A stretch of DNA of 32,000 nt from Pyrobaculum calidifontis JCM 11548 (GCF_000015805.1 NC_009073.1:1320001-1352000), one strand, 5' to 3'. Positions 11,622 to 32,000 are shown, counted from the first letter of the stretch. Notes: generated from the sequence alone by a model not told the origin. A program made the numbers and translations.

Positions 11622-11731
11622 ACAACTTGAAAAATCACGACGGAGTCCAACGGCATGCCACTTCGGTGAGGACTCTTTTTAAGTGTTATTGCCTGGGAGA
11701 GATTAATATTTATGTTGAACGAAGTAGAGAC

Positions 11732-12502
11732 GTGGCGCGTGCCAAGTTGCTCATGAAGGCGGGCATGGGGGCAACCTTCGGCGTCTGGATCACTATCCCC
11801 CACCCCGAGGTGGTGGAGATTCTCTCCAATCTCCCCTTTGACTGGTTTATGTTCGACATGGAGCACGCCCCCATCACTGTGGAGAAGCTGGAGACCATGC
11901 TTATGCCGCTTAGGGGGAGCGACATTGTCCCACTGGCAAGGGTGCCGTGGAACGACCCCGTGGAGATTAAACGCGTGCTCGACCTGGGAGTGGCCGGGGT
12001 CCTCGTGCCGTGGGTTAACACTAGGGAAGAGGCAGAGCGCGCGGTTAAGGCGGTGCGCTATCCGCCGTGGGGCATAAGGGGAGTGGGGCCTCGGCGGAGC
12101 GTCATGTACGGCTTCGCAGACGTGGTAAAGTACTACAAGGAGTGGGACGAGAACTACGTCTTGCTGGTCCAAGTGGAGACGGCGGAGGCCGTGGAAAACG
12201 TTGAAGAAATCGCGTCGGTGGAGGGCGTCACCGGCCTCTTCGTGGGGCCCAACGACCTCTCGGCCTCCCTGGGCGCGTTTAGAGATTTTAAAAACCCCAA
12301 GTTCACCGCGGCGCTTGAAAGAGTGTTGGCCGCGGCCAAGAGCCGGGGCAAGCTGGCCGGAGTCATGACGTACAGCCCCGAGGAGGCGGCGAGGATGGTG
12401 GAGATGGGGTTCAACTTCGTGGCTCTTTCACACGACGTGAAGTACTTGGTGGAGGGGGCAAAAGCCTTTCTTAGAGTTAAGGAGCTACTCGGGCGGCGGT
12501 AG
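11732..12502 (+). CDS. HpcH/HpaI-family 2-keto-3-deoxyacid aldolase
   Basis: FGVWITIPHPEVVEILSNLPFDWFMFDMEHAP...ARVPWNDPVEIKRVLDLGVAGVLVPWVNTREEAERAVKAVRYPPWGIRG is the typical HpcH/HpaI aldolase core. I prefer GTG 11732, with TATA AATATTTAT 19-27 nt upstream. The alternative is ATG 11753. The track start 11627 overlaps the TauE start region. Confidence 0.85.
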   Translation: MARAKLLMKAGMGATFGVWITIPHPEVVEILSNLPFDWFMFDMEHAPITVEKLETMLMPLRGSDIVPLARVPWNDPVEIKRVLDLGVAGVLVPWVNTREEAERAVKAVRYPPWGIRGVGPRRSVMYGFADVVKYYKEWDENYVLLVQVETAEAVENVEEIASVEGVTGLFVGPNDLSASLGAFRDFKNPKFTAALERVLAAAKSRGKLAGVMTYSPEEAARMVEMGFNFVALSHDVKYLVEGAKAFLRVKELLGRR

Positions 12503-12832
12503 GTACTCCTTCTCCTTGGCGGCCATCTGCTTTATCTCCTCGAGTCTCGAAAACACCTCGTCCCACACCTCGCGTCCCGTGGACTTGTGCTTGGCCACTG
12601 CCTCAAACACCGCCTTTCTAAAGGCCACGGGGACGTCCTCTATGTAGCCCCTGCTGTCTACTCTCGCGGCGGGGAACTCCGAGAGTATCCTCTTGGCCAC
12701 GTCCTCTGGCACTTCGAAGTCCAGAGTCTTGACTCTGCCGCCGAAGCTGGACTTTATCAACGACTCCAGCGGAGTGCCCTTGATTCTCTCAAGCCGCTTT
12801 TCGTCTAATACCAGGGCGAATTTGTACGTCAT
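12485..12832 (-). CDS. hypothetical protein translationally coupled to sat
   Basis: 115-aa ORF whose ATG overlaps the sat stop (ATGA at 12829-12832). Charged, helical-looking composition typical of real hyperthermophile proteins. No family recognised. Confidence 0.5.
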   Translation of the reverse strand: MTYKFALVLDEKRLERIKGTPLESLIKSSFGGRVKTLDFEVPEDVAKRILSEFPAARVDSRGYIEDVPVAFRKAVFEAVAKHKSTGREVWDEVFSRLEEIKQMAAKEKEYLPPPE

Positions 12833-14209: not shown

Positions 14210-14229
14210 CCTTTTAATCTTAATTCCTA
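14210..14229 (-). promoter_or_regulatory. sat promoter: TATA (GATTAAAAGG) preceded by a degenerate GGAAT element
   Basis: The minus strand reads TAGGAATTA-A-GATTAAAAGG. The first base of the element lies 39 nt from ATG 14190, the same offset as the GTGGAATAA promoters of the dsr region (6/9 identity). Confidence 0.4.
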
Positions 14230-19079: not shown

Positions 19080-19562
19080 CTACTTCGCCTGCTTAGCCTT
19101 TATTATACTACCCACGATTCTCACGGGCTGCGCCGGGCGTGGAAGCTCCTTAAAGCCCAAGAACTCGGGGTTGTCCTCCAGCGCGAGGAGCTCCGAGTCT
19201 AGGTCGGGCCTCTCGGGGAAGTCTAGCGCGCCCTTCGCCGAGCCCCAAGGGGTGGTGCGTATGGGGGAGGCGAACTCGTACACCGTTCCGTCTCTGTACA
19301 TTACGCGCCAGTAGATTATGTTCTTCTTGGTATCTCTCACAACGCCTATCCGGGCGCCCAGCGGGATAAAGTCGCTGTATCCTCTCACCTCCACCGCGTG
19401 TTCTGGGCAGTACTTGACGCAGTTTAAACACTCGGCACACGACACTGGGTCAGCGTTGTAGGCCTTCCTTATCTTGGGGTTGTAGTGCATGTTGTCTGCC
19501 GGGCATATGTCTACACACTTGCCGCACCCCTTGCACAGAGAGGCATATACAAATGTAGGCAT
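19080..19562 (-). CDS. aprB: adenylylsulfate (APS) reductase, beta (2x[4Fe-4S]) subunit
   Basis: MPTFVYASLCKGCGKCVDICP ... CAECLNCVKYCP, two ferredoxin-type clusters plus the long C-terminal tail typical of AprB. I prefer ATG 19562 over the track start 19580, which would lie on the TATA box. Confidence 0.9.
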   Translation of the reverse strand: MPTFVYASLCKGCGKCVDICPADNMHYNPKIRKAYNADPVSCAECLNCVKYCPEHAVEVRGYSDFIPLGARIGVVRDTKKNIIYWRVMYRDGTVYEFASPIRTTPWGSAKGALDFPERPDLDSELLALEDNPEFLGFKELPRPAQPVRIVGSIIKAKQAK

Positions 19563-19580
19563 GTCCCCACCCCTCTGCAC

Positions 19581-19588
19581 ATTTAAAA
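19581..19588. promoter_or_regulatory. single central TATA element of the 43-bp aprB / membrane-protein divergent spacer
   Basis: ATTTAAAA (TTTTAAAT on the other strand) lies 18 nt from ATG 19562 (minus) and 17 nt from ATG 19606 (plus). Confidence 0.5.
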
Positions 19589-19605
19589 GAGTTGTTCATC
19601 TACAG

Positions 19606-20559
19606 ATGGAAATAAGACTTAAGAACAAGCGCGCCGAGTGGACCATGCCCACAGAGATGGCGACTATAAAGGAGATTCAAACGGCGTGGGGGACCTACCG
19701 CTTCGTTGAGTCGCCTGTTGATTGGTTCGCCATAGACGTGTTGGCCGCGTTAACAGTGCTCTGGATCTTATTCACTTTTTGGTATAAGGGGGTGCGCCAG
19801 TTCAACGTCGTAAGATACCCCTACATTGAGACGATGATACCCTACGCCGAGTGGGATAGAAAGTTGTTAAGGGAGAAGCCCCCCATAGGCGTCGGAAGCG
19901 CCATCGCATACTTCTTCAAGACGTTGTTCGCCGACGTGTTGGCTATGGGAATTCTGAAGTGCGAATACGGGAAGTCGGAGAAGGAGGTGGTTAATACGAG
20001 GGCCGCGAAGCGGGTCGCGAAGCTGTTCATGGTATGGGGCTTTGTACTCGCCGGCATTTCTACGACGCTGGCCTACTTCACCTTCCCCCACAACATGATC
20101 GTCCTAGACCTGCACCACCCAGCCAGGATATTTGGCGTGGCGGGCGGAGTGCTCATGGTGGTGGGCGCCTTGATATGGCTCTCCGTTAGGTACAAGGAGG
20201 TGAACTACAGAGGCATTTGGGACTGGCTCGGCGCAGACTACTTGCCCTTCATGGTTCTACTGCTGGGGCTCTCCGGGTTCGTCCTACAAGCCGCCATATA
20301 CGTCTGGGCCCACAACCCCAGCGACGCCTTTGCCAACGCCTTCCTCTACTTTGCTGAACACTTCCACGCCATCCCCGTGGCGCTGTTCTTCTGGGCGTTC
20401 TTTTGGACAAAGGCCGACCACATAATCTACAGAATCCTCTGGCGCATATACGAGTACGCCGACAAGAAGTATGCGGCTTCTCACAACATCAGCAGACTCC
20501 CGCCGCCGACCCTCAAGGTGATGAATAAGACGGGCAAAGAGATACAGCCAGGCTACTAA
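19606..20559 (+). CDS. six-TM membrane protein with a NarI/DsrM/HdrE-like C-terminal heme-ligand signature; candidate membrane partner of AprBA
   Basis: 317 aa from ATG 19606 (the track start 19489 lies inside aprB). About 6 hydrophobic helices. The last helix carries H-x14-K-x2-H (HAIPVALFFWAFFWTKADH). The DsrM-like ORF of this window has identical spacing (HAALAMLFIAYVPFGKMVH), and this equals the H-x17-H spacing of NarI helix V. Confidence 0.6.
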   Translation: MEIRLKNKRAEWTMPTEMATIKEIQTAWGTYRFVESPVDWFAIDVLAALTVLWILFTFWYKGVRQFNVVRYPYIETMIPYAEWDRKLLREKPPIGVGSAIAYFFKTLFADVLAMGILKCEYGKSEKEVVNTRAAKRVAKLFMVWGFVLAGISTTLAYFTFPHNMIVLDLHHPARIFGVAGGVLMVVGALIWLSVRYKEVNYRGIWDWLGADYLPFMVLLLGLSGFVLQAAIYVWAHNPSDAFANAFLYFAEHFHAIPVALFFWAFFWTKADHIIYRILWRIYEYADKKYAASHNISRLPPPTLKVMNKTGKEIQPGY

Positions 20560-21062
20560 ACCCCTCTTTTTCCCCTCATCATAAAGACCACCGCATCCTC
20601 CTCCACCGGCACTTCCACAAGCCTAAGCGCCGTGTTGTTAGTCAATATGGCGAACGGCTGAGGCTCCACGTGTACCACCTCGCCGAATTCCACGTGGTCT
20701 AGATACTCCAGGGCCACCGTCCCCTCGTATATTGGGAAGCCCGTCAACTGCCTCCTCACCACCAGCTCGGTGATACCAAAGGGGACCTTCATCACCACCC
20801 GCGTGGCCTCCACAGGGTTTGCCTCAGAGACTTCGAAGTAGGCCTCTACGTCCATTGCGCCCCAGCCGTAGTAGGGGTAGAGCATGACGGCGAGCTCCCT
20901 CGACACGCCTATGCACGGCCCCTTCTCCACCTTAGCCACGGCCCGCCTCCCATCTCTAGACCTCAACTCCACGTAGGGCACCTCCACGTCTAAAAAAACC
21001 ACAGGCCTGTAGTCCAAGATAGTGCGAGTTAAACACATCCTCAGATACATGGACTTGGACAT
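20556..21062 (-). CDS. hypothetical protein
   Basis: 168-aa ORF (alternative start ATG 21050, 21-28 nt from TATA-like TTTATAC). No family recognised. Confidence 0.45.
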   Translation of the reverse strand: MSKSMYLRMCLTRTILDYRPVVFLDVEVPYVELRSRDGRRAVAKVEKGPCIGVSRELAVMLYPYYGWGAMDVEAYFEVSEANPVEATRVVMKVPFGITELVVRRQLTGFPIYEGTVALEYLDHVEFGEVVHVEPQPFAILTNNTALRLVEVPVEEDAVVFMMRGKRGV

Positions 21063-21122
21063 GTGTGAGTATAAATGCGTATAACCGCCGACAGGTTTTT
21101 ATAAGCACAGGTTTTTGGCGCC

Positions 21123-21623
21123 ATGTTGGTGGCTGTTATTTCGGACACGCACGACGACTGGGTGGCCATTAGGCGCTTCGGCGAATTGGTCAAGAGGCGT
21201 GGGCCGGCGTTTATAATCCACGCCGGGGATTGGACATCTCCCTTTAGCCTAATGAAGATGAGGAAGGCCGTGGGCGACATGCCCATCTACACCGTGTTGG
21301 GCAACAACGAGGGGGATAAGATCAACTTTGCCCGGCAGGCCGCCGCCCACAAGGTAGAGATCTTGGGAGACGCCGGTCTCATAGAGGCCGGGGGTAGGAG
21401 GATTGGCGTCTACCACGGAACCTCAGAGCTCATCCTAGAGGCGCTTATAAGGTCGAAGATGTTTGACATAGTTGTCTACGGCCACACCCACAAGGTTGAC
21501 ATCAGGCACGTGGATGGGACACTGGTGATAAACCCAGGCGAGGCATGTGGATGCGCACACGAGAGAAAAACAGCCGCATTTCTAGACTTGTCGACGCTTC
21601 ACGTGGAAATAGTGGACCTCTAA
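21123..21623 (+). CDS. YfcE/MJ0936-type metallophosphoesterase
   Basis: Calcineurin-like motif series D-x-H (ISDTHDD), GD (HAGDW), GNNE (LGNNEGD), H (YHGT), GHTH (YGHTHK), in a 166-aa single-domain protein. Confidence 0.85.
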   Translation: MLVAVISDTHDDWVAIRRFGELVKRRGPAFIIHAGDWTSPFSLMKMRKAVGDMPIYTVLGNNEGDKINFARQAAAHKVEILGDAGLIEAGGRRIGVYHGTSELILEALIRSKMFDIVVYGHTHKVDIRHVDGTLVINPGEACGCAHERKTAAFLDLSTLHVEIVDL

Positions 21624-21836
21624 CCGCCCGTCCCACGGAGACCACACACGCTAAGGAAACCGCGGCTACTCTTCATCAACGGCTACCGAGCTCAACACTG
21701 CCTACTGTTGGCTAAGGCGTGGCATAGGCTAAGCCCCCAACCGCCTCTACAAGGCGCCCATTCCTGCATGTTGTTTCACCGCGGCCCACCTTGCTCTATG
21801 GGTTTTACGTTTAAAAATATTAGTGTAACACGTCAT

Positions 21837-22526
21837 ATGTTTAGAGAGACTTGGAGAGGCGTTGTGCCTCCTCTCTCGGAATCTGCTCTGGAACTTGTCA
21901 AATTTTTCCTAGGCGAATATCCGCGGCCGACTTCTATATATTCCGCATATAGGGCTCTCCCGTACCCAGCGTCGACTATATATAAATCGGCCCGCGCCTT
22001 GAAATCTCTCCGAATTTTGAGGGAAGAGACTGGGGGCTACGTGGCCACAGTGAAGGCGGCCATAGTTGCGGCTTACCACCTCGACGAGGCGTATCTATCC
22101 TACGTGGAGAAGTTCTGGGGACTTGGGCCCCGGAGGGGGGTCTACAGCTACCTCCTCCTCTTGGGCGCGGCGCTTAGGCGGCTGGGCTTTAAGTTACAGG
22201 AGGCCTACATCTGCGACTTCTACGCAACCCCCATGTACATAATTCCATTTCTCTCCGGCGGAGCCGCAGAGGCTGGGAGGAAGCTGGGCCTAGAGCCCGC
22301 CGTGGTAGAAGAGGCGCTTGAGGTAATGAGAGAGGCTACTGCCCTCCGCGAAGTGTATGTGGATGGGCTTAGGGTTCTGTTGCTACGCGCTGGTGGGAGG
22401 CACGTGGTGGCAGACGTGGCCTGCTCTAAGTTTGGGAAGTGTGGACACGCATCGCCGTTGAGCTGTCCCAGGGCTAGGCGCATAATTACATACATCGCCG
22501 GCGGTGGTGTGAAAGAATCAATATAA
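21837..22526 (+). CDS. hypothetical protein (possible wHTH N-terminus, C-terminal Cys/His cluster)
   Basis: ATG 21837 lies 17-26 nt downstream of TATA TTTAAAAATAT. The track start 21708 has no promoter support. C-terminal CSKFGKCGHASPLSCP. No family recognised. Confidence 0.45.
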   Translation: MFRETWRGVVPPLSESALELVKFFLGEYPRPTSIYSAYRALPYPASTIYKSARALKSLRILREETGGYVATVKAAIVAAYHLDEAYLSYVEKFWGLGPRRGVYSYLLLLGAALRRLGFKLQEAYICDFYATPMYIIPFLSGGAAEAGRKLGLEPAVVEEALEVMREATALREVYVDGLRVLLLRAGGRHVVADVACSKFGKCGHASPLSCPRARRIITYIAGGGVKESI

Positions 22527-22546
22527 AGGGGTTAGATGTTTGTCCC

Positions 22547-23137
22547 ATGGCGCGGATTATATTAGTAGCAGTGCCCGGGGTGGGGAAGAGCACGATTTTG
22601 AAGTTTCTAACTGAGCGCAGGAGAGACGTCCAAGTGGTAAACTACGGCGACGTGATGCTCGAAATCGCCAAGGCCCGCTTCGGCATCGCCAATAGGGACG
22701 AGATGAGGAAGAAAATCCCCCTGGAACAGTACAGGGAGGTCCAGAGGGAGGCCGCGGAGAGAATCGCCCAGATGCAGGGCCACGTGGTGGTGGACACCCA
22801 CGCGTCGATAAAGATAGCCGGGGGGTACTACCCAGGCCTACCCCACCGCATTATCACGCTCATGAAGCCGCACGCCATTGTGTTAATAGAGGCGGACCCG
22901 CAGGTGGTGCTAAAGCGCAGAGCCAGCGACGCCACTAGGCCCACGAGGGACGTGGAGACCCCCGAAGACGTGGAAAGGCACCAAGAGGCCAACCGGCACT
23001 ACGCCTACGCGGCCTGCGAGGCGGCGGAGTGCATCGTCTACATAATCGACTTACGCAAAGTGCCAGAGACGCGGCCCTTTGAACACGCAGAGTACGCCGC
23101 GGGCAAGCTATCCGAGCTCATAGACGCCCTCGGCTGA
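22547..23137 (+). CDS. adkA: archaeal-type adenylate kinase
   Basis: 196 aa. N-terminal P-loop VAVPGVGKST. The size and layout (P-loop NMP kinase of about 195 aa, IDLRKV-type C-terminus) match the archaeal AdkA class. Confidence 0.75.
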   Translation: MARIILVAVPGVGKSTILKFLTERRRDVQVVNYGDVMLEIAKARFGIANRDEMRKKIPLEQYREVQREAAERIAQMQGHVVVDTHASIKIAGGYYPGLPHRIITLMKPHAIVLIEADPQVVLKRRASDATRPTRDVETPEDVERHQEANRHYAYAACEAAECIVYIIDLRKVPETRPFEHAEYAAGKLSELIDALG

Positions 23138-23417
23138 CGGTCTTCCACAACTCTCTCAAAAGAGCCGCCACCTGCCCCAGCGGCTTCTCAGTCTTGTAAA
23201 ACACGGCGAGGTACTGCACAGCCCCGTCGTCGACAAGTATACAGGGGCCGCACAGCTCAGCAGCCACGTCGCCAATGGGCCTCCCCCCGTACGTGGCAGG
23301 CAACTTGACGACTCCCCCCTCGGCTATTACCAACGCCTTTAGATTGCAGAGGCAGACGAGTTCAGCAAAAACTTTTTCAAAAAACTCCCTGGCGTTTTCT
23401 ACCCGGATCTCCTCCAC
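23118..23417 (-). CDS. small hypothetical protein coupled to the dsrM-like gene (possibly Roadblock/LC7-like)
   Basis: 99 aa. GTG 23417 overlaps the dsrM-like TAG by 1 nt. The KALVIAEGGVV ... ILVDDGAVQYLAVF pattern is reminiscent of Roadblock/LC7-type small alpha/beta proteins; this is a weak, unverified impression. Confidence 0.4.
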   Translation of the reverse strand: MEEIRVENAREFFEKVFAELVCLCNLKALVIAEGGVVKLPATYGGRPIGDVAAELCGPCILVDDGAVQYLAVFYKTEKPLGQVAALLRELWKTVSRGRL

Positions 23418-24181
23418 TATCCCCTCAGCTTCGTCAGTATATATCCGTAGAGCCTAGTGGGGGCGCTCCAGAGGGTGGGCATGGCCAAGAAGGAGAATGG
23501 GTGCACCATTTTTCCAAAGGGCACGTAGGCTATGAAGAGCATGGCCAACGCCGCGTGAACCTTAGTGACCACGTCCGCCTCGGCCATCTTCTCAACGCCA
23601 GCCACGGGATTCCCCAAGAGGACGTTCTGCAACCACGGAGACACAGTCTCCATGTAGTTGGGGTGCAAGACGAGGGTCTGCACATTGCCAAGGCCCACAA
23701 TTGCGAGGAGGAGGACTAGGGCAAACCAGTCGTCTAGAAAGCTCAGCTTCCGCACGTCTGGCCTAACGAGCCTCCGCACGAGGAGGAGGACCAGCCCTAT
23801 GAACGCCGCAATGCCCGCCGCCCCGCCCACATACAGGGCTATGGCCTTGTGCACCTCCTTCGGCATCCCGAAGTTCTCCGGGGGGACGATCATGGAGAGG
23901 TGGCCGAGGAGCGCGATCCAGATGCCCCAGTGGAATAGGAAAGACCCCACCTGCAAGAGGCGGTCGGACATGCCGAGGTTGTAGAGCACGAAGATCCTCT
24001 TGAGCACCTCGCCGAGCCTGTCGCCGAAGCCCCACTTGTAGCCCAGCACCTGTACTGAGTAGAGGCCCGTGAGGTCCGGCGCCCTGAGCCACCCGGCGAA
24101 TTTGTACAAAACCCCAGCTATGAACAGCGCCAGAGATATGTAAGGCGCTACGCCAAATACAAATAAATCAAGTGGAGACAT
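23417..24181 (-). CDS. dsrM: DsrM/HmeC-like membrane di-heme cytochrome b (NarI family)
   Basis: 254 aa, about 5 TMs. Helix II H-x9-H (HWGIWIALLGH) and helix V H-x17-H (HAALAMLFIAYVPFGKMVH) reproduce the NarI heme-ligand spacings. Confidence 0.8.
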   Translation of the reverse strand: MSPLDLFVFGVAPYISLALFIAGVLYKFAGWLRAPDLTGLYSVQVLGYKWGFGDRLGEVLKRIFVLYNLGMSDRLLQVGSFLFHWGIWIALLGHLSMIVPPENFGMPKEVHKAIALYVGGAAGIAAFIGLVLLLVRRLVRPDVRKLSFLDDWFALVLLLAIVGLGNVQTLVLHPNYMETVSPWLQNVLLGNPVAGVEKMAEADVVTKVHAALAMLFIAYVPFGKMVHPFSFLAMPTLWSAPTRLYGYILTKLRG

Positions 24182-24200
24182 AGGAAGATTGGGAGTGGGG

Positions 24201-24220
24201 CTTATAATCTGTTATTCCAC
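24201..24220 (-). promoter_or_regulatory. dsrM-like promoter: GTGGAATAA element + TATA
   Basis: The minus strand reads GTGGAATAA-CAG-ATTATAAG. The first base of the element lies 39 nt from ATG 24181. Confidence 0.6.
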
Positions 24221-24228
24221 ATTCACGG

Positions 24229-24666
24229 TTAATACCTCTTCTCCATGCACTTGCCCAGCTGCTTTAAGAGAGAGACGAGGTAGCCCAAGCCTCTCTGCAC
24301 GTCTGGGTCCCTAAGCGCCGCCAGTAGGCCCATTAGGCCAATTGGCTTTTCCACCTCCGCAACGGCCACGGCGGTGGTTAAGCAGTCCAGCTTTGAAGTA
24401 TCTTGCGACATGTTGACCGCGGCGGTTAGGGCCACCTCCTGCAACTTGGCGACCTTCTCTATGAAGCCCGGCGTGAGCAGGCCCTCGGTTATAAAGCGTA
24501 ACGTAGTGGCCAACTGGAGCAAGTCGTCCAACACGCCGCTCCTCTTGAACTCCCACAGCGTCCTCACCAAGTCGCGGAGGACGTCTATCCGCTCGACGAT
24601 CTCTGCGAGAGCCTCCTGCGTCTTAGGAGACTCCAACGCCTTTAAGAGCCTCTCCTCGGTACTCAT
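24229..24666 (-). CDS. DUF1641-family protein
   Basis: 145 aa from ATG 24666, which overlaps the sqr-like stop (ATGA at 24663-24666). The C-terminal PIGLMGLLAALRDPDVQRGLGYLVSLLKQLG matches the DUF1641 hallmark. That family is commonly encoded next to FAD-dependent SQR/NDH-2-like oxidoreductases. Confidence 0.65.
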   Translation of the reverse strand: MSTEERLLKALESPKTQEALAEIVERIDVLRDLVRTLWEFKRSGVLDDLLQLATTLRFITEGLLTPGFIEKVAKLQEVALTAAVNMSQDTSKLDCLTTAVAVAEVEKPIGLMGLLAALRDPDVQRGLGYLVSLLKQLGKCMEKRY

Positions 24667-25799
24667 AGCCCACACCTAACCGCGCTCCATATGGAGAAAT
24701 TAGTCAAATCTTTTAGCCTCATCATGAACTTATTGCTTGGCACGGGGTAGAGGGCGGGGCCGTCGTAGTTCCAGCTCACCTGCGTAGCCTCCTCTGTCCC
24801 CGTCAAAATGAAGCATATGACCCTGCCGTTGTATACAGAGTCTGCGTGGCCGAACTCCATATCCTCATATATCCTGTCAGCCACAACCTCGGACTGGAAG
24901 TGCGCCACGCTGCCAGCCTTAGGCACGGCCAAATTGGTGGTATCGCCTATCGCGTACTCCACTCCGTTGCCCCCGGCGATCTGGAGAGTGTACTTATCCA
25001 CGGGGACCCAGCCCCCCTGGTCCACCAGTCCCGAGTTAAAGGCCACCTCTGCCGCGGTGTGCTTAGGCACCACGATAATTAAGTCGCCCTTCAACGTCTC
25101 GGGGCCCACCACCTCCCCCTCCCTCACCTCCTTTACCTCGAACTTGGTCCTATACTCAATCCCCCTATTCCTAAACTCCTCCTCCAAGAACTTGTTCACA
25201 TTGGGCTGCGCATGCAGGTGCGGCGCCACCGTGGTAAACACTATTTTGACGTCCTTCTTCCGCCCAGTCTTCATCAACACGTCGTCGAAGTAGAAGAGGA
25301 ACTCGTAGGGGGCAACGGGGCACTTAAAAGGCGTCGAGGCAACGGAGAATACCAAGGTCCCCTTAGCAAATTTAGAGAGGGCTTCCCTCAGCGCCTTGGC
25401 CCCCTCGTAAGTCCAGAAAGTGTGCCACACCTTTTTAAACCCGGGAAAGTGGTCCGTCTTAACCACCGCGCCCGTGGCCAAGACGAGGTAGTCGTACTGA
25501 ATCTCAGACCCATCCCCCAGAACCACCTTGCGGTTTTTCACGTCTATTTTGGTGGCCGGCTTTTTCACCAAGTTCACAAGTGGGTGTAGCACCTTCCGCA
25601 CGGGCCTAAACATCACTTCGCTGGGCAACTCCTTAAACGGGACGTATAGGAACCCGGGCTGGTAGACCACGTTCTCCTCCGGCTCTACAACTACGACCTC
25701 CAGCTCCCCCTTCTTCACCTTTGCAAACGCCTTAGTTGCCAACTTATTCGCAGTAAACGCGCCGCCGACTCCCCCTCCCACTATTACCACCCTCCGCAT
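24663..25799 (-). CDS. sulfide:quinone oxidoreductase-like FAD-dependent disulfide oxidoreductase
   Basis: MRRVVIVGGGVGGAFTANKLA dinucleotide fold. Two candidate redox Cys in SQR-like contexts (TPFKCPVAPYEF and GRVICFILTG), plus an IGDTT FAD motif. ATG 25799 is preferred; the track start 25811 would lie about 6 nt from the TATA. Confidence 0.8.
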   Translation of the reverse strand: MRRVVIVGGGVGGAFTANKLATKAFAKVKKGELEVVVVEPEENVVYQPGFLYVPFKELPSEVMFRPVRKVLHPLVNLVKKPATKIDVKNRKVVLGDGSEIQYDYLVLATGAVVKTDHFPGFKKVWHTFWTYEGAKALREALSKFAKGTLVFSVASTPFKCPVAPYEFLFYFDDVLMKTGRKKDVKIVFTTVAPHLHAQPNVNKFLEEEFRNRGIEYRTKFEVKEVREGEVVGPETLKGDLIIVVPKHTAAEVAFNSGLVDQGGWVPVDKYTLQIAGGNGVEYAIGDTTNLAVPKAGSVAHFQSEVVADRIYEDMEFGHADSVYNGRVICFILTGTEEATQVSWNYDGPALYPVPSNKFMMRLKDLTNFSIWSAVRCGL

Positions 25800-25816
25800 G
25801 CCAGCACGCAATGAGA

Positions 25817-25837
25817 AATTTATACAACTTATTCCCT
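25817..25837 (-). promoter_or_regulatory. sqr-like promoter: AGGGAATAA element + TATA
   Basis: The minus strand reads AGGGAATAA-GTTG-TATAAATT. The first base of the element lies 38 nt from ATG 25799. Confidence 0.5.
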
Positions 25838-25883
25838 AGTCGCTGTATAATAAGGCAAAAGTTTATTCGAAAGCAATTTTGAA

Positions 25884-25906
25884 CAAAATTAAAATTAAAA
25901 TATATT
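25884..25906 (-). terminator. T-tract terminator region after the dsrK-like gene
   Basis: The minus strand immediately downstream of the TAA (25917-25919) reads ATATTTTAATTTTAATTTTGTTC. Archaeal termination typically occurs at oligo-T runs. Confidence 0.4.
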
Positions 25907-25916
25907 TCAGGGAGCT

Positions 25917-27401
25917 TTAAACGACTATGGCCTTGTATACCAGGTCCATTAGCCCGGAGTAGGTTATGTTTTTGCCGTACTCCTTGTTTAAGTGGGGGAT
26001 TGTGTGGCTCAGCTGGGCTTTGCATATGGCGCAGGCCCTGACCACGTGGTTTGCGTTGACCTTCAAGGCGTCTTCGTACCAGTTCTTGGCGTATTGAATC
26101 CTCAGCGGCAGAAGCTCGTCGGTCAGCAGGCCCCCTCCGCCGCCGCAGCACCACGTCTTCTCTCTGTTGTTGGGGCTCTCCACGTAGTTCTTAACCACGT
26201 GCCGAATTATGAAGCGTGGCTCCTCCGTCAAGTCGCCGCCGCGGGCGTAGTTGCAGGAGTCTTGGAAGGTGTAGACGACGTCGCCGTTGCGGGAGGGGTC
26301 CAGCTTCAGTTTGCCGTTTTTAATGGCGTCTACCACTAGGTGGAAGACGTGCATAGTCTTTATGCCGTGTTTCTCCAGCTCTGGCCCAGTGTAGTTCTTA
26401 AAGGCGCGCCACCCGTGGCCGCACTCCCCCGCAATTACGTACTTCACCTTGAGCCTGAGCGCGGCGTTGACGGCCTTCTGGCCTATGAACTTCATGTGGC
26501 GCTCTGAGGCAAATAGGCCGAAGTTTGCCAGCTCCGCCATCTCTGTGCTAAAGGCGTACTTAATCCCCATTAGGTGGAGGAAGAGCATGTACCCCTTGAG
26601 AGTCTCCATGTTTGTAAAGAAGTCGGCCGAGGGCGGAATGAGCAAGGCCTCCGGCCAATCGGGGTCGCCGGGCTGGACCTCCTTGACCGGCTGATCCGCC
26701 TTGTACTTAACCAGCTTGTTCTGGTCGTCGCGGTATATGAAGTACTCCACCTCGACGCCCTTCTCCTCCTTGATCTCCCCCGCGGCAAAGGTTATGGACT
26801 TTATAACCGCCATAGGCTTCATGCCCAAGTTTGTGCCCGTGCGCTCCACCGCGTCAATGACTGTGGCAATGTACTTCGAGATTATGCCGGCCTCGTACAT
26901 GACCTCTCTAACAAGCCTAGTGATGTCCGCCTGATCTATGCCGAAGGGGCAGGAGTAGGCGCACTTTCTACACTCCAGGCACTGGTAGTAGTACGTGTAT
27001 ATCTTCTCCAACTGCTCCTCCGTGAGCTTCACCGCCCCCACGGCTTTGCCGAACAGCTTCCCGCTCAGGGACTCGGCCTTAATTACAGACCTAATGAGCT
27101 CCGCCCTGCCCACGGGGGAGTTGAAGATGTCCTTAGTCTGGACATATGTGGGGCAGTTGTCTAGGCATATGCCGCAGTGGACGCACACCTCCATGGCCAT
27201 TTTCACGTTCCGGTTCCGTGAAACCTCCTCCCTCAGCCGCCGCCGTATGTGCTCCAGGGGGTCCTTAGGAAGCTCAAGACCCACCCTGGAGTGAAGAACC
27301 TTGACCTGGTCCTCCTTGGCTTTAAAAGGCTTGATGTTGGAGGTATCCCCCATCTTAAACGCCGCGGCTCCATGTTGGGCCGCCTCATGCGCCACAGCCA
27401 T
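25917..27401 (-). CDS. dsrK: DsrK/HmeD/HdrD-like iron-sulfur protein with CCG domains
   Basis: 494 aa. Two ferredoxin-type motifs (CVHCGICLDNCP, CLECRKCAYSCP) followed by Cys-rich CCG-type regions, including the terminal WCCGGGGG. This is the HdrD/DsrK architecture. Confidence 0.85.
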   Translation of the reverse strand: MAVAHEAAQHGAAAFKMGDTSNIKPFKAKEDQVKVLHSRVGLELPKDPLEHIRRRLREEVSRNRNVKMAMEVCVHCGICLDNCPTYVQTKDIFNSPVGRAELIRSVIKAESLSGKLFGKAVGAVKLTEEQLEKIYTYYYQCLECRKCAYSCPFGIDQADITRLVREVMYEAGIISKYIATVIDAVERTGTNLGMKPMAVIKSITFAAGEIKEEKGVEVEYFIYRDDQNKLVKYKADQPVKEVQPGDPDWPEALLIPPSADFFTNMETLKGYMLFLHLMGIKYAFSTEMAELANFGLFASERHMKFIGQKAVNAALRLKVKYVIAGECGHGWRAFKNYTGPELEKHGIKTMHVFHLVVDAIKNGKLKLDPSRNGDVVYTFQDSCNYARGGDLTEEPRFIIRHVVKNYVESPNNREKTWCCGGGGGLLTDELLPLRIQYAKNWYEDALKVNANHVVRACAICKAQLSHTIPHLNKEYGKNITYSGLMDLVYKAIVV

Positions 27402-27417
27402 ATCCCCAACGCCGTTT

Positions 27418-27439
27418 GTATAAATAAAGCTTATTCCAC
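27418..27439 (-). promoter_or_regulatory. dsrK-like promoter: GTGGAATAA element + TATA
   Basis: The minus strand reads GTGGAATAA-G-CTTTATTTATAC. The first base of the element lies 38 nt from ATG 27401. Confidence 0.6.
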
Positions 27440-27444
27440 AGACA

Positions 27445-27708
27445 ATGCTAACTCCCGTGCCCCATGCAGAGGAGGCCGCCTACGCCGTATCTACCTTCTC
27501 CGCCTTCAACTACACAAAGCCCCCCGAATATACCGCGTCACCGCCCTATGGCGTCGGCAATTGTCCCGTCGAGGCGCAATGTTGGGGCACAATACACGTG
27601 TACAACTTATGGCGCGGAGTTCTGCAAGCTCTGCCGCATCAGCCCAGTGGCCCCCTTAAATGGGCCAAGCCCCTAGGGCGGGGACCAGCACTTTCTCACA
27701 ATAACTAG
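27445..27708 (+). CDS. candidate small ORF (87 aa) divergent from the dsrK-like gene
   Basis: This is the only long ORF in an otherwise unassigned 270-bp gap. ATG 27445 lies 18 nt from the central TATAAATA of a 43-bp spacer, mirroring the aprB arrangement. The composition is Pro-rich and poor in charged residues (atypical), and no family was recognised. Confidence 0.25.
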   Translation: MLTPVPHAEEAAYAVSTFSAFNYTKPPEYTASPPYGVGNCPVEAQCWGTIHVYNLWRGVLQALPHQPSGPLKWAKPLGRGPALSHNN

Positions 27709-28320
27709 GAGGGGCTTCTCAACCTTCTCCACCTTCTCCAGTGGGAGGCAGGTCCCTCCCAGGGAGATTCTGCTACACACGTAGACCTCCACGGCTTTGC
27801 CGCACACCTTTTTCACAAGCTCGGCCACTTGGGAGAGTCTGTCGCCCATCATAAATATGACGTACACGTCGGCTCTCACGCTCTTGAGAACCTCCTCGTC
27901 GACGTGGGGGTAGGAGAGGAGGGCCACGTGGCGGAGGGCGACGCCGTCGGTTAGCTCCACTCCGCCTAGGGCTGAGGCGGCGGTGAAGCTGGACACGCCT
28001 GGGACAATCTCGCACGGCACGCCCGCGGCGCGGGCCATGCGGCAGATCTGATGCGCCCTCCCAAACACCGTGGGGTCGCCGTTCTTCAACAACACCACGT
28101 TCTTCTCCCTGGCCACCTCAAGCAACCTAGCCACGACCTCGTCGTGGTCCTTATGCCTATGCCCAATCTTCACCCTCTCGGCCTGGGGGGCGAACTCCTC
28201 CACCACCTCCTCTGGCACCAAGTCGCCGTAGGCCACCACGTCTGCCCTCTGCAGAATTTTGACCGCCTTAAGCGTCAAGAGCTCCTTGTCCCCCGGCCCG
28301 ACGCCCACTATGTAGAGCAC
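27673..28320 (-). CDS. tetrapyrrole (corrin/porphyrin) methylase, uroporphyrinogen-III C-methyltransferase-like
   Basis: LYIVGVGPGDKELLTLKAVKILQRADVVAYGDLV is the classic N-terminus of the SUMT/precorrin methylase superfamily. 215 aa. Overlaps the dsrN 3' end by 13 nt. Confidence 0.7.
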   Translation of the reverse strand: MLYIVGVGPGDKELLTLKAVKILQRADVVAYGDLVPEEVVEEFAPQAERVKIGHRHKDHDEVVARLLEVAREKNVVLLKNGDPTVFGRAHQICRMARAAGVPCEIVPGVSSFTAASALGGVELTDGVALRHVALLSYPHVDEEVLKSVRADVYVIFMMGDRLSQVAELVKKVCGKAVEVYVCSRISLGGTCLPLEKVEKVEKPLLVIVRKCWSPP

Positions 28321-29645
28321 AACCTCTCCAACACGTTGTAGGTGTAGGGGTGTATGTGGAGGTACTGGGCGTGCATGTTGTATTTCACAATGCCGTCGAC
28401 GCCTCCGCCAATCCCCACGCCTCTCTCCAGCTTAATCGCCGGCTCCACCCTCTCCCTCAATATGAGCTTGGAGTAGTGGAACTCGTGCCCCTTCAGCTGG
28501 GCCCCCACCGGCGCTATGGGGGTCTTCCCCACTACGCGGCCCCAGGCGTACCCCTTCCCTACCGGCCTCTTAAGCACAACAGCCACGCCGTCTACCACGT
28601 CCACCATCTCGTACTCGCCCCCCTCGTACACCACCGAAGAGGCCATGTACATGAGGCCGCCGCACTCGGCGTACACCCTCCCCCCAGACTCCACGAAGCG
28701 CCTCAGCGAGGCCCTAAACGGCTTGTTCCTCTCCAGCTCCTCTGCCAAAACCTCTGGGAACCCCCCTCCCACGTACAAGACGTCTACCTCGGGCACGGCC
28801 TGGTCCTCAAGAGCGTTGACGTACACCACCTCGCCGAGGGCCGAGGCGTATTCAAACACCTCGGGGTAGTAGAAGTTGAAAGCCCTGTCAAACACCACCC
28901 CGATTCTACAGCCGAGCCTCCGGGGCTGCGGGGGGTCCACCACCTCTACGTCAAGATCCCCGGCCTCCCTTGCCACCTCTAACACCTCGTCGAAGTCTAT
29001 GTAGGGGAGGACGTGGCGCTCCAACACGTGGAAGAGCCCCCCATCCCCCCTCTCGGCCACTGGGACTAGGCCCAGGTGCCTATACGCGAAAAACTGGGCA
29101 ATTTTCTCGCTCCTCGGGATAGCCCCCAACAGCCTCACCCCCTCCTCGGGGATAGACTTGGCCAACTTCTCCACTTGGCGGCCCACCACGTTGGTCAAAA
29201 TAACCCCTGCGATGTTCACGCCGGGGTCAAAGGCCTTGAGCCCCCTCACCACGGCCCGCAACGTCCTATTCACCCTCTCCCCGTTCAACACCAGCACTAC
29301 GGGGGCCTTGAGCAACTTAGCCACCTGCGCGGTGGACCCCAGCTCGGAGACCCCGTCCACTGAGTCGTATAGCCCCAAGACGCCCTCTACCACGGCAACG
29401 TCAAAGCCGGCTGAGTATTTTACAAACCTCTCCAAGACCCCCCTCTCCCCCATTAACACCACGTCGAGATTTCTGCTGGCGGCCCCAGCCGCCGCGCCGT
29501 GGTACGAGGGGTCTATAAAGTCGGGGCCGACCTTGAAGGGCGCCACCCTCAGCCCCCTGCGGCGGAGGCCATACATCAAGCCCAGCGCCGCTATGGTCTT
29601 CCCAGAGATGCCCTTAAAAGAGGAGACGACGAGGCGGGGTACCAC
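28308..29645 (-). CDS. dsrN: cobyrinic acid a,c-diamide synthase homologue (DsrN-type siroheme amidase candidate)
   Basis: 445 aa. N-terminal ATP-binding SFKGISGKT ... FKVGPDFIDP and C-terminal glutamine amidotransferase Cys (YAECGGLMY), the CbiA/CobB architecture. It begins 15 nt after dsrC, the usual DsrN context. Confidence 0.8.
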   Translation of the reverse strand: MVPRLVVSSFKGISGKTIAALGLMYGLRRRGLRVAPFKVGPDFIDPSYHGAAAGAASRNLDVVLMGERGVLERFVKYSAGFDVAVVEGVLGLYDSVDGVSELGSTAQVAKLLKAPVVLVLNGERVNRTLRAVVRGLKAFDPGVNIAGVILTNVVGRQVEKLAKSIPEEGVRLLGAIPRSEKIAQFFAYRHLGLVPVAERGDGGLFHVLERHVLPYIDFDEVLEVAREAGDLDVEVVDPPQPRRLGCRIGVVFDRAFNFYYPEVFEYASALGEVVYVNALEDQAVPEVDVLYVGGGFPEVLAEELERNKPFRASLRRFVESGGRVYAECGGLMYMASSVVYEGGEYEMVDVVDGVAVVLKRPVGKGYAWGRVVGKTPIAPVGAQLKGHEFHYSKLILRERVEPAIKLERGVGIGGGVDGIVKYNMHAQYLHIHPYTYNVLERLCST

Positions 29646-29660
29646 GGGGAAAAAGGGGGT

Positions 29661-29996
29661 TTATACGCAGCCCGTGGGCTTAGGCGCCCCGGCCACTTTA
29701 CACGCGCCGTGCGCTGGCCCAGAGGGGAACAGCTGGTAGATCTGCTCAAGGGTGAAGCCTGTCTCCTTTGTCAACATCTTAATCGGCGGGCAAGAGCCGT
29801 ATGTCTCCCAGTACTCCCTGAGATACCTAATTACCTTCCAGTGGGCGTCTGTCAGCTGCTGTATTCCCTCAAGCTCCCTGGCCATCCACTCGGCTATTTT
29901 CTCATCCCAGTCCTCTGTGTTCTGCAAGAAGCAGTCCTCGTCGAGGATCACCTTTTTACCATCCACTGTGTACTCTCCTGGACATTTAACCGGCAT
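29661..29996 (-). CDS. dsrC: DsrC (TusE/DsrC/DsvC family) with both C-terminal-arm cysteines
   Basis: 111 aa. The C-terminus ...PSGPAHGACKVAGAPKPTGCV has a penultimate Cys and a second Cys 10 residues upstream, the functional DsrC signature. Confidence 0.95.
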   Translation of the reverse strand: MPVKCPGEYTVDGKKVILDEDCFLQNTEDWDEKIAEWMARELEGIQQLTDAHWKVIRYLREYWETYGSCPPIKMLTKETGFTLEQIYQLFPSGPAHGACKVAGAPKPTGCV

Positions 29997-30015
29997 AGAC
30001 CCACTTGGGCCTGTG

Positions 30016-30035
30016 CTTAAAAAGATTTATTCCAC
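30016..30035 (-). promoter_or_regulatory. dsrC operon promoter: GTGGAATAA element + TATA
   Basis: The minus strand reads GTGGAATAA-A-TCTTTTTAAG. The first base of the element lies 39 nt from ATG 29996. Confidence 0.6.
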
Positions 30036-30058
30036 TAATCTCGGAAAGACTTCCTCCA

Positions 30059-30077
30059 GTGGAATAAGGTATATATA
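30059..30077 (+). promoter_or_regulatory. dsrE-like promoter: GTGGAATAA element + TATA
   Basis: The plus strand reads GTGGAATAA-GG-TATATATA. The first base of the element lies 38 nt from ATG 30097. Confidence 0.6.
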
Positions 30078-30096
30078 CATGCCCCAAGTCGCCCAC

Positions 30097-30447
30097 ATGC
30101 CGGATAAAGTGGCCTTCTTAGCCACAATGCCGCCTGCAGATGGGCCTAGAATTTCTACAATGCTCGGCTACGCCTTGGCAGCCGCCTCTATGGGATTCGA
30201 GGTGTTGATTTTCTACACCTTGGACGCAGCCCACATAGTAAAAAAGAAAGTCTTTGAAAAACTAGACCCGCAGATTAGGGAGAGGTTTAAGCAGTGCATG
30301 GACATGGGGTGTAAGATGTGGCTGTGCTCCTCGGCCGCGGCCACCTTCAACATAAAAGAGGACGAGGTAGTGGAGGGAGTCAAGATAATGGGCATAGCGA
30401 GCTTCTACGAATACGCGGCTGAGGCCAAGGTTGTGCTCACTTGGTGA
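30097..30447 (+). CDS. DsrE/DsrF-like sulfur-relay family protein
   Basis: 116 aa from ATG 30097 (alternative ATG 30079 abuts the TATA). KVAFLAT ... FEVLIFYTLDA ... MWLCSSAAATFNI ... IMGIASFYEY follows the DsrE/F fold pattern. Three Cys in KQCMDMGCKMWLC. The track start 29752 lies antisense inside dsrC. Confidence 0.65.
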   Translation: MPDKVAFLATMPPADGPRISTMLGYALAAASMGFEVLIFYTLDAAHIVKKKVFEKLDPQIRERFKQCMDMGCKMWLCSSAAATFNIKEDEVVEGVKIMGIASFYEYAAEAKVVLTW

Positions 30448-30928
30448 CCTCCACGGCGTCTACGTATCCAAACTTGTTTTTTAACTCTGCCAAGTACTCC
30501 TCCGCCCTTTCTCTAATTAGCAAGGCCGCGATCTGGGCCCAGTTGAAGAAGCCCCACTCGAGGGGGACTGTGAACTTCACTGAGAGGAACCCGTAGAGGC
30601 CGGACTCGTCGCATTTCACTGGGAATAGAGACATGGCGTAGTTGAGCCTGTACCCAGGCCAGGGGAGGTCCTCCACCTCGCCCAGGAGAGTGGTCTCCCC
30701 CTCCGCGTCGGCGCAACCAGCGGTGGTAAAGACGCGTATGTTCAAGTCTATGAAGCCCATCTTGTACCTACTCCCGTCGAGGACCACCAAGGCGTAGAGG
30801 TTGACGTCTCGGACCCAGAGGTGTAACTTTTCCGAGGGGTCTTGAAAGACGAGGACTTGGGGAAACTCCCGGAGGTAGACGGGGCGGGAAAAAGACCTTA
30901 TCTTTTTTTCAAACTCCTCAAATTCCAT
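30437..30928 (-). CDS. hypothetical protein directly downstream of and overlapping dsrB
   Basis: 163 aa from ATG 30928 (MEFEEFEKKIRSF...). Overlaps the dsrB stop (30918-30920) by 11 nt. No family recognised. Confidence 0.5.
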   Translation of the reverse strand: MEFEEFEKKIRSFSRPVYLREFPQVLVFQDPSEKLHLWVRDVNLYALVVLDGSRYKMGFIDLNIRVFTTAGCADAEGETTLLGEVEDLPWPGYRLNYAMSLFPVKCDESGLYGFLSVKFTVPLEWGFFNWAQIAALLIRERAEEYLAELKNKFGYVDAVEVTK

Positions 30929-32000
30929 CTCTGAGCCGCGGGTAGACGTCGCCGCGGGATCTGTAGGTGAGGAACGTCCTGGCAAACTCAGGCACTCTCT
31001 GGTAGTAGTCTCTAACCTTGCCGAAGCCCAGCAGATCGAGGAACTTAGTCCACCCCACTCTCTCGATGAAGTCGGCGAGTCTCTCGCCGGGCTGGGCGTG
31101 CTGCCTCCACGTCTCTACTATGTGCTTTACCACGGCCACTATCTCCTCATACCTCGGCGGATTTGCGGGCAACCACGGTATCAACACCCGGCCCAGCCTG
31201 GGGCCAGTGCCAGTGTTAGACATCTTGCCGCCCACGAGTATTGACACGCCCACGTTTTCTGGGTCGTAGTCAAAGGCGTCGCAGTTCTCCTTACACCTGG
31301 CGCAGTTGATGCACTTTTCCCCAATTAGGACGAGCTTTACCTTGTCCCCCTCCCTCCTCAGAGAAAGGGCGCCGGTGGGGCAGACTTGGACTAGGAATAT
31401 CTGCGACTCCGGCAACTTGGCCAAGGCCTTAGGCGGCGGGAGACACATGGGGAGGACCTCCTCGCGTATCTTCGGCGGGGCGCCCCACTGGCCCACTATT
31501 GCTATATCTATAGCTGTGCCGCCAGCGCACATGGCCGGGCAACCGCTGACGAAGACCCTGAGCTTTGCGGGAAGCGGAATCTCGCCAGTGAAGTAGGGCT
31601 TCAGCGCATCGCCGAGGGCCTTGCTAATACTTGGGCTATCCACCACCGCGGTGGTGCACGTCAGATATGCAGTACAGCTGTTGATTCCCCACAAGGCGCC
31701 GCCCCAGCCTCCCACTGGGAAGCCCAGCTTCTCCACCTCCTCCTTGATCTTAAGCGCCTTCTCCAGAGAGTCTGTCAGAAACTCTATGTTGCCTGCCATG
31801 GTCACCCTCAGCGCGCCTATGCCCAACTTGTCCGCAATATCGGCAAATTTGTCCAACGTATCCGCCGAAAGCCTCGCGTTAGGCGGCAACGCGACTTTCA
31901 CAGTGAATATCCTCTCCCCAGTGGCAGAGACGTGCTCAATTATACCATTGCCATGGAACTTCCTATCCACCCACTTTCCATAGTTCCTGAGTATGGCCTC
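30918..32000 (-). CDS. dsrB: dissimilatory sulfite reductase beta subunit, N-terminus beyond right window edge
   Basis: Siroheme/FeS-binding Cys pattern (NSCTAYLTCTT, SGCPAMCAG) and an inserted ferredoxin motif (CINCARCKENC), with overall colinearity to DsrB as I recall it. The frame stays open upstream of the track GTG 31970 to base 32000 (EAILRNYGKWVDRKF...), so the gene is 5'-partial here. Confidence 0.9.
   Translation of the reverse strand, partial: EAILRNYGKWVDRKFHGNGIIEHVSATGERIFTVKVALPPNARLSADTLDKFADIADKLGIGALRVTMAGNIEFLTDSLEKALKIKEEVEKLGFPVGGWGGALWGINSCTAYLTCTTAVVDSPSISKALGDALKPYFTGEIPLPAKLRVFVSGCPAMCAGGTAIDIAIVGQWGAPPKIREEVLPMCLPPPKALAKLPESQIFLVQVCPTGALSLRREGDKVKLVLIGEKCINCARCKENCDAFDYDPENVGVSILVGGKMSNTGTGPRLGRVLIPWLPANPPRYEEIVAVVKHIVETWRQHAQPGERLADFIERVGWTKFLDLLGFGKVRDYYQRVPEFARTFLTYRSRGDVYPRLRDGI

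Follow-up and report, generated by a model that had tools for sequence, protein, structure and literature searches.

A nine-nucleotide box adjoining the TATA box marks sulfur-respiration promoters in Pyrobaculum calidifontis and is probably a regulon-specific element

The ultraviolet-inducible promoters of Sulfolobus acidocaldarius carry the hexanucleotide 5'-A(N)TTTC-3' at -44 to -39; they form a stress regulon, the reader of the hexanucleotide is unknown and recruitment of TFB3 has been proposed (PMC5817253). The SurR boxes of the Thermococcales, GTTn3AAC or GTTn3AACn5GTT, are read by an ArsR-type winged-helix protein with a cysteine redox switch (PMC12162507). The PF1088 (TFB-RF1) site of Pyrococcus furiosus, the ara box and ArnR box 1 are, as they are mentioned in PMC5817253, non-palindromic and lie directly 5' of the B recognition element (BRE). 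For Sulfolobus, a strong BRE follows the rule of A at -3 and A or G at -6 from the TATA box (PMC5817253). Next to nothing is known of how archaea regulate dissimilatory sulfite and sulfate reduction, and a genetic system for Pyrobaculum is lacking. In this study a stretch of 32,000 nucleotides (nt) from Pyrobaculum calidifontis JCM 11548 (GCF_000015805.1 NC_009073.1:1320001-1352000, G+C 58%), hereafter the window and numbered from its first base, was analyzed. Its subject is the 9-mer GTGGAATAA, which lies just 5' of the TATA box at four promoters of dsr genes and which, judged from the DNA sequence, is very probably a regulon-specific cis element of sulfur-respiration genes.

An exact count found four copies of GTGGAATAA in the window and no fifth. 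The genes were identified with Pfam and NCBIfam as encoding DsrE, DsrC, DsrK, DsrM/NarI-like, type III SQR-like, Sat, AprBA and DsrB proteins. In the lines below, distances run from the first base of the motif to the A of the ATG, and L019 is the metagenome contig of a close strain.

30059-30067, + strand: GTGGAATAA, promoter of the dsrE-like gene (ATG 30097, 38 nt), TATA box TATATATA at 30070-30077; identical in L019
30027-30035, - strand: GTGGAATAA, promoter of the dsrC-dsrN-cobA operon (ATG 29996, 39 nt), TATA box TTTTTAAG at 30016-30023; kept in L019
27431-27439, - strand: GTGGAATAA, promoter of dsrK (ATG 27401, 38 nt), TATA box TTTATTTATA at 27419-27428; kept in L019
24212-24220, - strand: GTGGAATAA, promoter of the dsrM-like gene and orf99 (ATG 24181, 39 nt), TATA box ATTATAAG at 24201-24208

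Dinucleotide-preserving shuffles gave a mean of 0.06 copies per window and none of 100 shuffles gave four, a significance that is overstated because the whole window was shuffled and promoter regions are AT-rich. The initial annotation of the window had reported these four copies, their coordinates and their distances from the ATG (38, 39, 38 and 39 nt for dsrE, dsrC, dsrK and dsrM), and all of these were reproduced. It had also placed the 9-mer 0-3 nt from the TATA box; the adjacency holds at all four sites, and the measured distance is 2-3 nt. The variants AGGGAATAA at the sqr-like gene (38 nt) and TAGGAATTA at sat (39 nt) were as claimed, and the promoters named as lacking the motif (ABC operon, ATG 2877; protease, 10388; rhodanese, 3778; phosphoesterase, 21123) do lack it. 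Two matches of 8/9 reported within coding sequence are both real, the first lying at 8481-8489 and not at 8482-8490. The revised start codons at 30097 and 25799, which the constant spacing had been taken to support, match gene calls made independently on identical metagenome contigs and fit the full-length Pfam coverage.

The element lacks symmetry and keeps a single orientation, in which AATAA is the half next to the TATA box and GTGG the half farther away. There is one copy per promoter, and divergent promoters each have their own, as in the dsrC and dsrE pair, where 23 nt separate the two copies. The TATA boxes start about 27 nt before the ATG, like those of the generic promoters of the window. 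In leaderless archaeal genes the promoter box lies about 26 nt from the start, and leaderless transcription was first found in P. aerophilum, as stated in a citation of Slupska 2001 (PMC6028130). From the spacing between TATA box and ATG, leaderless transcription of the genes described here can reasonably be inferred, and if the transcripts are leaderless, a box 2-3 nt from the TATA box falls 38-39 nt from the ATG. With a 2-nt spacer the AATAA half fills positions -7 to -3 from the TATA box; both -3 and -6 are A, and by the Sulfolobus rule this half is a strong BRE. The BRE is recognized through the C-terminal helix-turn-helix of TFB, and its usual extent in TFB-BRE structures is 6-7 nt. The suggestion that the element occupies the position of the archaeal BRE is thus correct for the AATAA half, whereas GTGG at -11 to -8 lies beyond the canonical BRE. 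The promoters share only the 9-mer and the TATA box and their flanks are dissimilar, so they are not duplicated cassettes. No second half-site or dyad 5' of the box was consistent across the promoters, and the dyad operator of a winged-helix dimer was accordingly not recognized; an inverted TTCC(A/G)C partner was present only at the dsrE2 and orf157 promoters described below. Within the dsrC/dsrE intergenic region (29997-30096), CCCAAGT is common to both sides at about -16 to -10 from each ATG, which makes the whole region roughly mirror-symmetric beyond the box and TATA box, and this feature was not seen at other promoters.

The Sulfolobus hexanucleotide is the closest described element in architecture. 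Both are short, non-palindromic and fixed in orientation, lie near the BRE and TATA box, are common to a set of genes and are conserved in related species. However, the Sulfolobus element lies fully 5' of the BRE and is found with weak BREs, whereas the Pyrobaculum box overlaps a strong-looking BRE, is 9 nt long and has another sequence; the former serves a DNA-damage regulon and was experimentally tested, and the latter belongs to sulfur respiration and is known from sequence alone. The SurR box is the closest in biology, being a cis element at many promoters of energy-metabolism genes that respond to sulfur. Some boxes of relatives (GTTAATAAC) formally fit GTTn3AAC. GTGGAATAA does not fit it, and any of the four bases can follow GTTAATAA in relatives, where the ninth base is not a conserved C, so assignment to a SurR-type box was rejected. 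SurR sites are also variable in position and orientation and SurR comes from a different phylum, whereas the Pyrobaculum box is fixed to the TATA box. The likeness to the archaeal BRE lies in the position directly 5' of the TATA box and in the AATAA half, but the BRE is generic, while GTGGAATAA is confined to one gene cluster and reaches 4-5 nt further 5'. At the PF1088 site, the ara box and ArnR box 1 a dedicated factor acts on TFB recruitment, and by analogy the Pyrobaculum box may resemble them in this. Those sites go with imperfect BREs and activation, whereas the Pyrobaculum BRE and TATA box look strong, which makes occlusion at least as plausible. GTGGAATAA is a member of neither the Sulfolobus nor the SurR system, since it departs from both in sequence, in placement with respect to the BRE, in BRE strength and in the candidate protein. 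No earlier description of the motif or of any dsr regulator in Thermoproteales was found in the openly searchable literature.

Identical metagenome contigs extended the analysis to a composite of 49.65 kb of this genome (the window plus L009 and L015). Contig L009 is 100% identical to window positions 20097-32000 and runs 8.4 kb further, a stretch with dsrAB as well as another sulfite-reductase-like cluster. On the left, contig L015 adds 9.2 kb with radical SAM and 2-oxoacid dehydrogenase genes, and no copy was found there. The copies beyond the window are as follows.

tusA promoter: exact copy, GTGGAATAAggCTTTTAAA, 38 nt
dsrE2 promoter: exact copy, GTGGAATAActCTTATTAATA, 38 nt
orf157 promoter (unannotated gene for a predicted winged-helix protein of 157 amino acids, directly 5' of dsrA): one-mismatch copy GCGGAATAA, 38 nt
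dsrA promoter: weaker copy, TAGGAATAG
sqr2 promoter: weaker copy, GAGAAATAA

The dsrA promoter just outside the window, to which the initial annotation had pointed, therefore has a related but weaker sequence in place of the exact 9-mer. Six of the seven exact copies in the composite were promoter-positioned (dsrE, dsrC, dsrK, dsrM, tusA and dsrE2), and the seventh is coding (KWNK in dsrB2) without a TATA box. When one mismatch was allowed, 7 of 17 matches were promoter-positioned, and 11 of 136 when two were allowed, all 38-39 nt from a start codon. Of these 11 copies, ten belong to the sulfur cluster; the remaining one stands before an adenylate kinase gene that is itself located within the cluster.

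To compare promoter classes, 16 sulfur-cluster promoters and 18 other TATA-bearing promoters were scored by their best match at offsets 36-43. A match with at most three mismatches was present at 14 of the 16 sulfur-cluster promoters and at 1 of the 18 others (Fisher p = 1.2e-6), and with at most one mismatch at 7 of 16 and 0 of 18 (Fisher p = 0.002); because the classes and mismatch thresholds were assigned after inspection, these p-values are indicative only. A generic BRE would be expected in degenerate form at most promoters, which is not the distribution found in the roughly 50 kb sampled.

Conservation was examined at two distances. L019 is a 138-kb metagenome contig that shares 96.8% identity with the composite. 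Between the two, about 36 substitutions or indels were counted in ten promoter regions, none of them in any box or TATA box. At tusA the spacer changed from GG to TT and an indel moved the box from 38 to 39 nt, and at dsrE2 both flanks are heavily rewritten but the box is kept. L019 also has GGGGAATAA ahead of a second dsrA paralogue. The distant set comprised P. oguniense TE7 (CP003316), Thermoproteus sp. AZ2, a P. oguniense-like contig and four metagenome-assembled genomes of Pyrobaculum; their genes are not arranged in the same order, and the DsrK of the window is 78-84% identical to that of other Pyrobaculum genomes. Lack of conservation in orthologous dsr promoters had been named as a refutation, and it is averted only by half. 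The exact 9-mer is absent from the promoters of the distant set, but a related box lies in the same place, 2-3 nt 5' of the TATA box, at orthologous and additional sulfur promoters of six other Thermoproteaceae lineages. It reads GTTAATAA at dsrA, dsrK, dsrC, dsrE, aprB, sat, tauE, tusA and orf81, GGTAATAA at dsrE2, tusA, orf81 and dsrA2, and GTGAATAA or GGAA(A)TAA at dsrC, dsrM, tusA, aprB and the gene divergent from aprB. The non-sulfur promoters of the same loci lack a box. In an alignment of 37 box-bearing sulfur promoters on the TATA box, A was found at -7 in 35, at -6 in 28, at -4 in 34 and at -3 in 31, T was found at -5 in 23, and positions -11 to -8 were G or T; 37 non-sulfur promoters showed only mild A enrichment at -5 to -2 and no signal at -11 to -6, both sets being curated by hand. 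The conserved feature is a G/T-rich stretch of 3-4 nt followed by AATAA, mostly GTTAATAA, and it is homogenized to GTGGAATAA in this species. The new copies, the 18 non-sulfur promoters, the conservation in L019 and the orthologous promoters all support the original proposal of a regulon-specific element fused to the TATA box over a generic BRE.

Weaker copies within the window were found at the following promoters.

25829-25837, - strand: AGGGAATAA, two mismatches, promoter of the sqr-like gene and a DUF1641 gene (ATG 25799, 38 nt), TATA box TGTATAAA at 25819-25826
14221-14229, - strand: TAGGAATTA, three mismatches, sat promoter (ATG 14190, 39 nt), TATA box ATTAAAAG at 14211-14218
19607-19615, + strand: variant TGGAAATAA, promoter of a weakly QmoC-like gene (probable ATG 19645, 38 nt), TATA box CTTAAGAA at 19618-19625
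19592-19600, - strand: GATGAACAA, degenerate copy and weak member, aprBA promoter (ATG 19562), TATA box TCTTTTAAA at 19582-19590
11686-11694, - strand: AGGCAATAA, then 3 nt, then TTAAAAAG (11675-11682), 5' of a TauE/SafE-type sulfite exporter gene
22509-22517, + strand: GTGAAAGAA, two mismatches, adenylate kinase promoter (ATG 22547, 38 nt); the sole match outside the sulfur set

The form GGAAATAA of the QmoC-like promoter also occurs at the orthologous promoter of the P. oguniense-like contig L021, and orthologous aprB promoters carry GTTAATAA in L003 and GGAGAATAA in L021. The TauE/SafE-type gene is a doubtful member, as it would have a leader; its orthologue in L005 has GTTAATAAagg-TTTTTATT in a leaderless position. 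The adenylate kinase copy may be functionally linked to the sulfur set through recycling of adenosine monophosphate after adenosine 5'-phosphosulfate (APS) reduction. As side observations, the adenylate kinase gene (22547-23137, + strand), inside the sulfur cluster, encodes an archaeal-type enzyme (NCBIfam equivalog, 227 bits, cutoff 155), and the longest open reading frame (ORF) at 19489-20559 (+ strand) overlaps aprB on the opposite strand. Its real start is probably ATG 19645 (MPTEMATIK), giving a 304-amino-acid membrane protein that is encoded divergently from aprBA and whose weak QmoC-like hit does not reach the curated cutoff. This protein may be an electron donor to APS reductase.

Three genes of the cluster encode candidate readers of the box.

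Window 21837-22526, + strand: orf229, uncharacterized; a winged helix-turn-helix is predicted at the N terminus, and a Cys/His cluster lies at the C terminus
L009 14071-14781, - strand: orf236, beyond the window
L009 13273-13746, - strand: orf157, beyond the window, directly 5' of dsrA

The orf157 product is a paralogue of the orf236 product, with 33% identity (E = 3e-15), and that of orf229 is a distant relative. All three share the predicted N-terminal winged-helix region, a conserved 'AYIC' cysteine and a C-terminal C-x4-5-C-x-H-x8-9-CP cluster. Pfam, NCBIfam and PDB sequence searches gave no family for these three or for orf81, orf99, orf151, orf163 and orf166. AlphaFold models of the N-terminal domains are confident (predicted local distance difference test score about 90-98; given as about 90 for orf236 and, for orf229, as a mean of 89) and have a helix-helix-helix-strand-strand winged-helix topology. 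Their best PDB fold matches (Foldseek) were MarR, ArsR/SmtB, MntR and Rrf2 regulators, and nearly all top hits were winged-helix regulators, but at weak E-values of 2.5e-3 to 0.3. The family is small: 6 homologues are known for orf236 and, among 1.84 billion proteins, 14 representatives for orf229; orf157 has near-identical copies only. This family, confined to Thermoproteaceae, may consist of metal, Fe-S or thiol-based sensor regulators. The orf236 orthologue adjoins dsrM in P. oguniense and is 42-43% identical, compared with 84% for DsrK. The box also differs between the species (GTGG versus GTT), which fits a fast-evolving dedicated reader. The orf157 promoter has its own motif copy together with an inverted partner. 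Relatedness to SurR was not detected: a profile of orf236 and orf157 against PDB chains gave only a spurious match to DppD (E = 0.18), and SurR was not among the top 50 Foldseek hits of the candidate readers. SurR is a double winged helix with an N-terminal CxxC, whereas the candidates have their cysteines in the middle and toward the C terminus.

Several further observations concern these genes and their promoters. At dsrE2 (L009 17734-17760, - strand) and orf157 (L009 13784-13806, - strand), tacTTCC(A/G)C lies 7 and 5 nt 5' of the box, in the layouts TTCCAC-N7-GTGGAA and TTCCGCC-N5-GGCGGAA, respectively. The inverted partner, confined to these two promoters, may constitute a second site of the dyad type. 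In L020, from a distant relative with 52.7% G+C whose orf236 is 88% identical, the orf157 homologue keeps exact GTGGAATAA (1593-1601, + strand); its TATA box is apparently deleted and the box lies 33 nt from the ATG. Another orf236 homologue locus, L022, was fragmentary and uninformative. An HxlR-type winged-helix gene at 5984-6310 was rejected as a reader, since it lies in an unrelated neighbourhood (peroxiredoxin, DUF981) and has no link to the box.

The analysis leans toward the reading that GTGGAATAA is a regulon-specific element of a sulfur-respiration supercluster (dsr, apr, sat, sqr, tusA, dsrE) and is read by a dedicated factor, likely the predicted winged-helix/Cys proteins encoded in the cluster. 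We infer the binding of a protein to the box from the features described above, along with the identity of that protein and the sign of regulation, and the common function and clustering of the box-bearing genes suggest that they are co-regulated. In this model, a sequence-specific factor would bind the box and govern access of TFB and TBP to otherwise strong core promoters, so that all box-bearing operons would switch together with sulfur or redox state. The readers would be the small Thermoproteaceae-only family of orf229, orf236 and orf157, with the Cys/His cluster as a putative sensor. By analogy with SurR, regulation could be repression by occlusion with ligand- or redox-triggered release (PMC12162507). 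Since BRE and TATA boxes both look strong, activation appears somewhat less likely than occlusion.

A dedicated factor is favored by the presence of predicted winged-helix/Cys proteins in the cluster, by the drift of the upstream half of the box between species and by the autoregulation-like features of orf157. Several points weigh against it. The matches at the dsrA, sat and aprB promoters are weak, and the promoter classes behind the p-values were, as noted, drawn after inspection. The candidate readers belong to families without annotated relatives and their fold matches are weak (Foldseek E at least 2.5e-3). Winged-helix dimers usually bind dyads, and there is no consistent second half-site here; a single asymmetric site at a strict distance from the TATA box is more like a core-promoter element. 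This last feature leads to the view that the box is an extended BRE, recognized by TFB1 or TFB2 with TBP, so that the general machinery itself would select the sulfur regulon with no separate factor. The asymmetry of the element, its constant orientation and its distance of 2-3 nt from the TATA box are all as this view would have it, and so are its single copy at each promoter, divergent pairs included, and the placement of AATAA exactly in the BRE position with A at -3 and -6. All Pyrobaculum genomes also carry tfb1 and tfb2, and a condition-specific role has been suggested for one of them (PMC3388794). However, GTGG lies 8-11 nt 5' of the TATA box, past the usual BRE, the upstream half varies between close species (GTGG versus GTT), which is unexpected for a conserved general factor, and three candidate dedicated regulators are encoded in the cluster. 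An extended BRE of this kind is unlikely, though far from negligible.

The control promoters leave room for another reading, in which the box is the optimal BRE region of highly expressed genes in general and looks sulfur-specific because the 50 kb sampled holds no other strong genes. The controls are few (18 here and about 20 in relatives), they probably include no promoter of a highly expressed gene, and rRNA, tRNA and ribosomal-protein promoters are absent from the set; tRNA genes were sought as strong generic promoters and none was present in any locus examined. This also counts against a regulon-specific element, as AATAA could mark strong promoters generally, and generic promoters are likewise A-enriched at -5 to -2. 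Nevertheless, the G/T-rich stretch with AATAA occurred at this position in none of about 37 non-sulfur promoters from seven lineages, these negatives include the promoters of peroxiredoxin, acetyl-CoA synthetase, Phe-tRNA synthetase and a 2-oxoacid dehydrogenase operon, and a species-specific GTGG or GTT extension is hard to explain from promoter strength alone, so that a generic strong-promoter consensus is quite improbable. That the copies arose by chance, or by shared descent of promoters duplicated with paralogues, is effectively refuted. Several targets are indeed paralogue pairs (dsrE/dsrE2, sqr/sqr2, dsrAB/dsrA2B2), and the AT-richness of promoter regions gives chance more scope than the shuffles indicate. 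But dsrC, dsrK, dsrM and tusA are unrelated genes with dissimilar flanks, the offset is fixed at 38-39 nt, and the motif is kept in L019 while its flanks diverge.

Some neighbouring genes of the sulfur cluster were also examined. The second sulfite-reductase-like cluster (dsrA2B2, orf166, dsrE2, sqr2, DUF1641, tusA, orf151; L009 15327-20351, +3.4 to +8.4 kb from the window end) adjoins canonical dsrAB and has the same box in its promoters. The products of orf99 (window 23118-23417, - strand) and orf81 (L009 13851-14096, + strand) are paralogues (31% identity over 52 amino acids, E = 7e-6) with the common motif 'CLC...GGVV.PA.Y.G'. The former gene is co-transcribed with dsrM, and the latter is divergent from the putative regulator gene on the dsrA side and is conserved beside dsrA or sat in P. 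oguniense and L003. A DUF6955 gene (12485-12832, - strand) is translationally coupled to sat by a stop/start overlap and also lies 3' of sat in L003, which suggests that its product is an uncharacterized partner of ATP sulfurylase. An 87-amino-acid ORF called on metagenome contigs (27445-27708, + strand) runs antisense over the promoter and start of dsrK; it lacks homologues and domains, and the call is probably spurious.

For the biology of the organism, the box defines a regulon and draws into it orf81, orf99, orf151 and the QmoC-like membrane protein; it also corrects start codons and gives a handle for finding the regulator. As a speculation to which we assign a low but appreciable likelihood, the Thermoproteaceae may possess a sulfur-regulon 'promoter code', in which an asymmetric box fused to the BRE would be read by monomeric winged-helix proteins with Cys/His sensors beside TFB, or by a specialized TFB. 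This code would have been rewritten in concert from GTTAATAA to GTGGAATAA at at least 6 promoters in one lineage, coincident with the birth of the lineage-specific paralogue orf157 directly 5' of dsrA. If true, the concerted change of the box beside fast-evolving winged-helix proteins would be a case of co-evolution between an archaeal cis element and its trans reader. If the reader is instead a TFB paralogue, the sulfur-respiration genes of Pyrobaculum would clearly exemplify, for Crenarchaeota, the selection of a regulon by a general factor.

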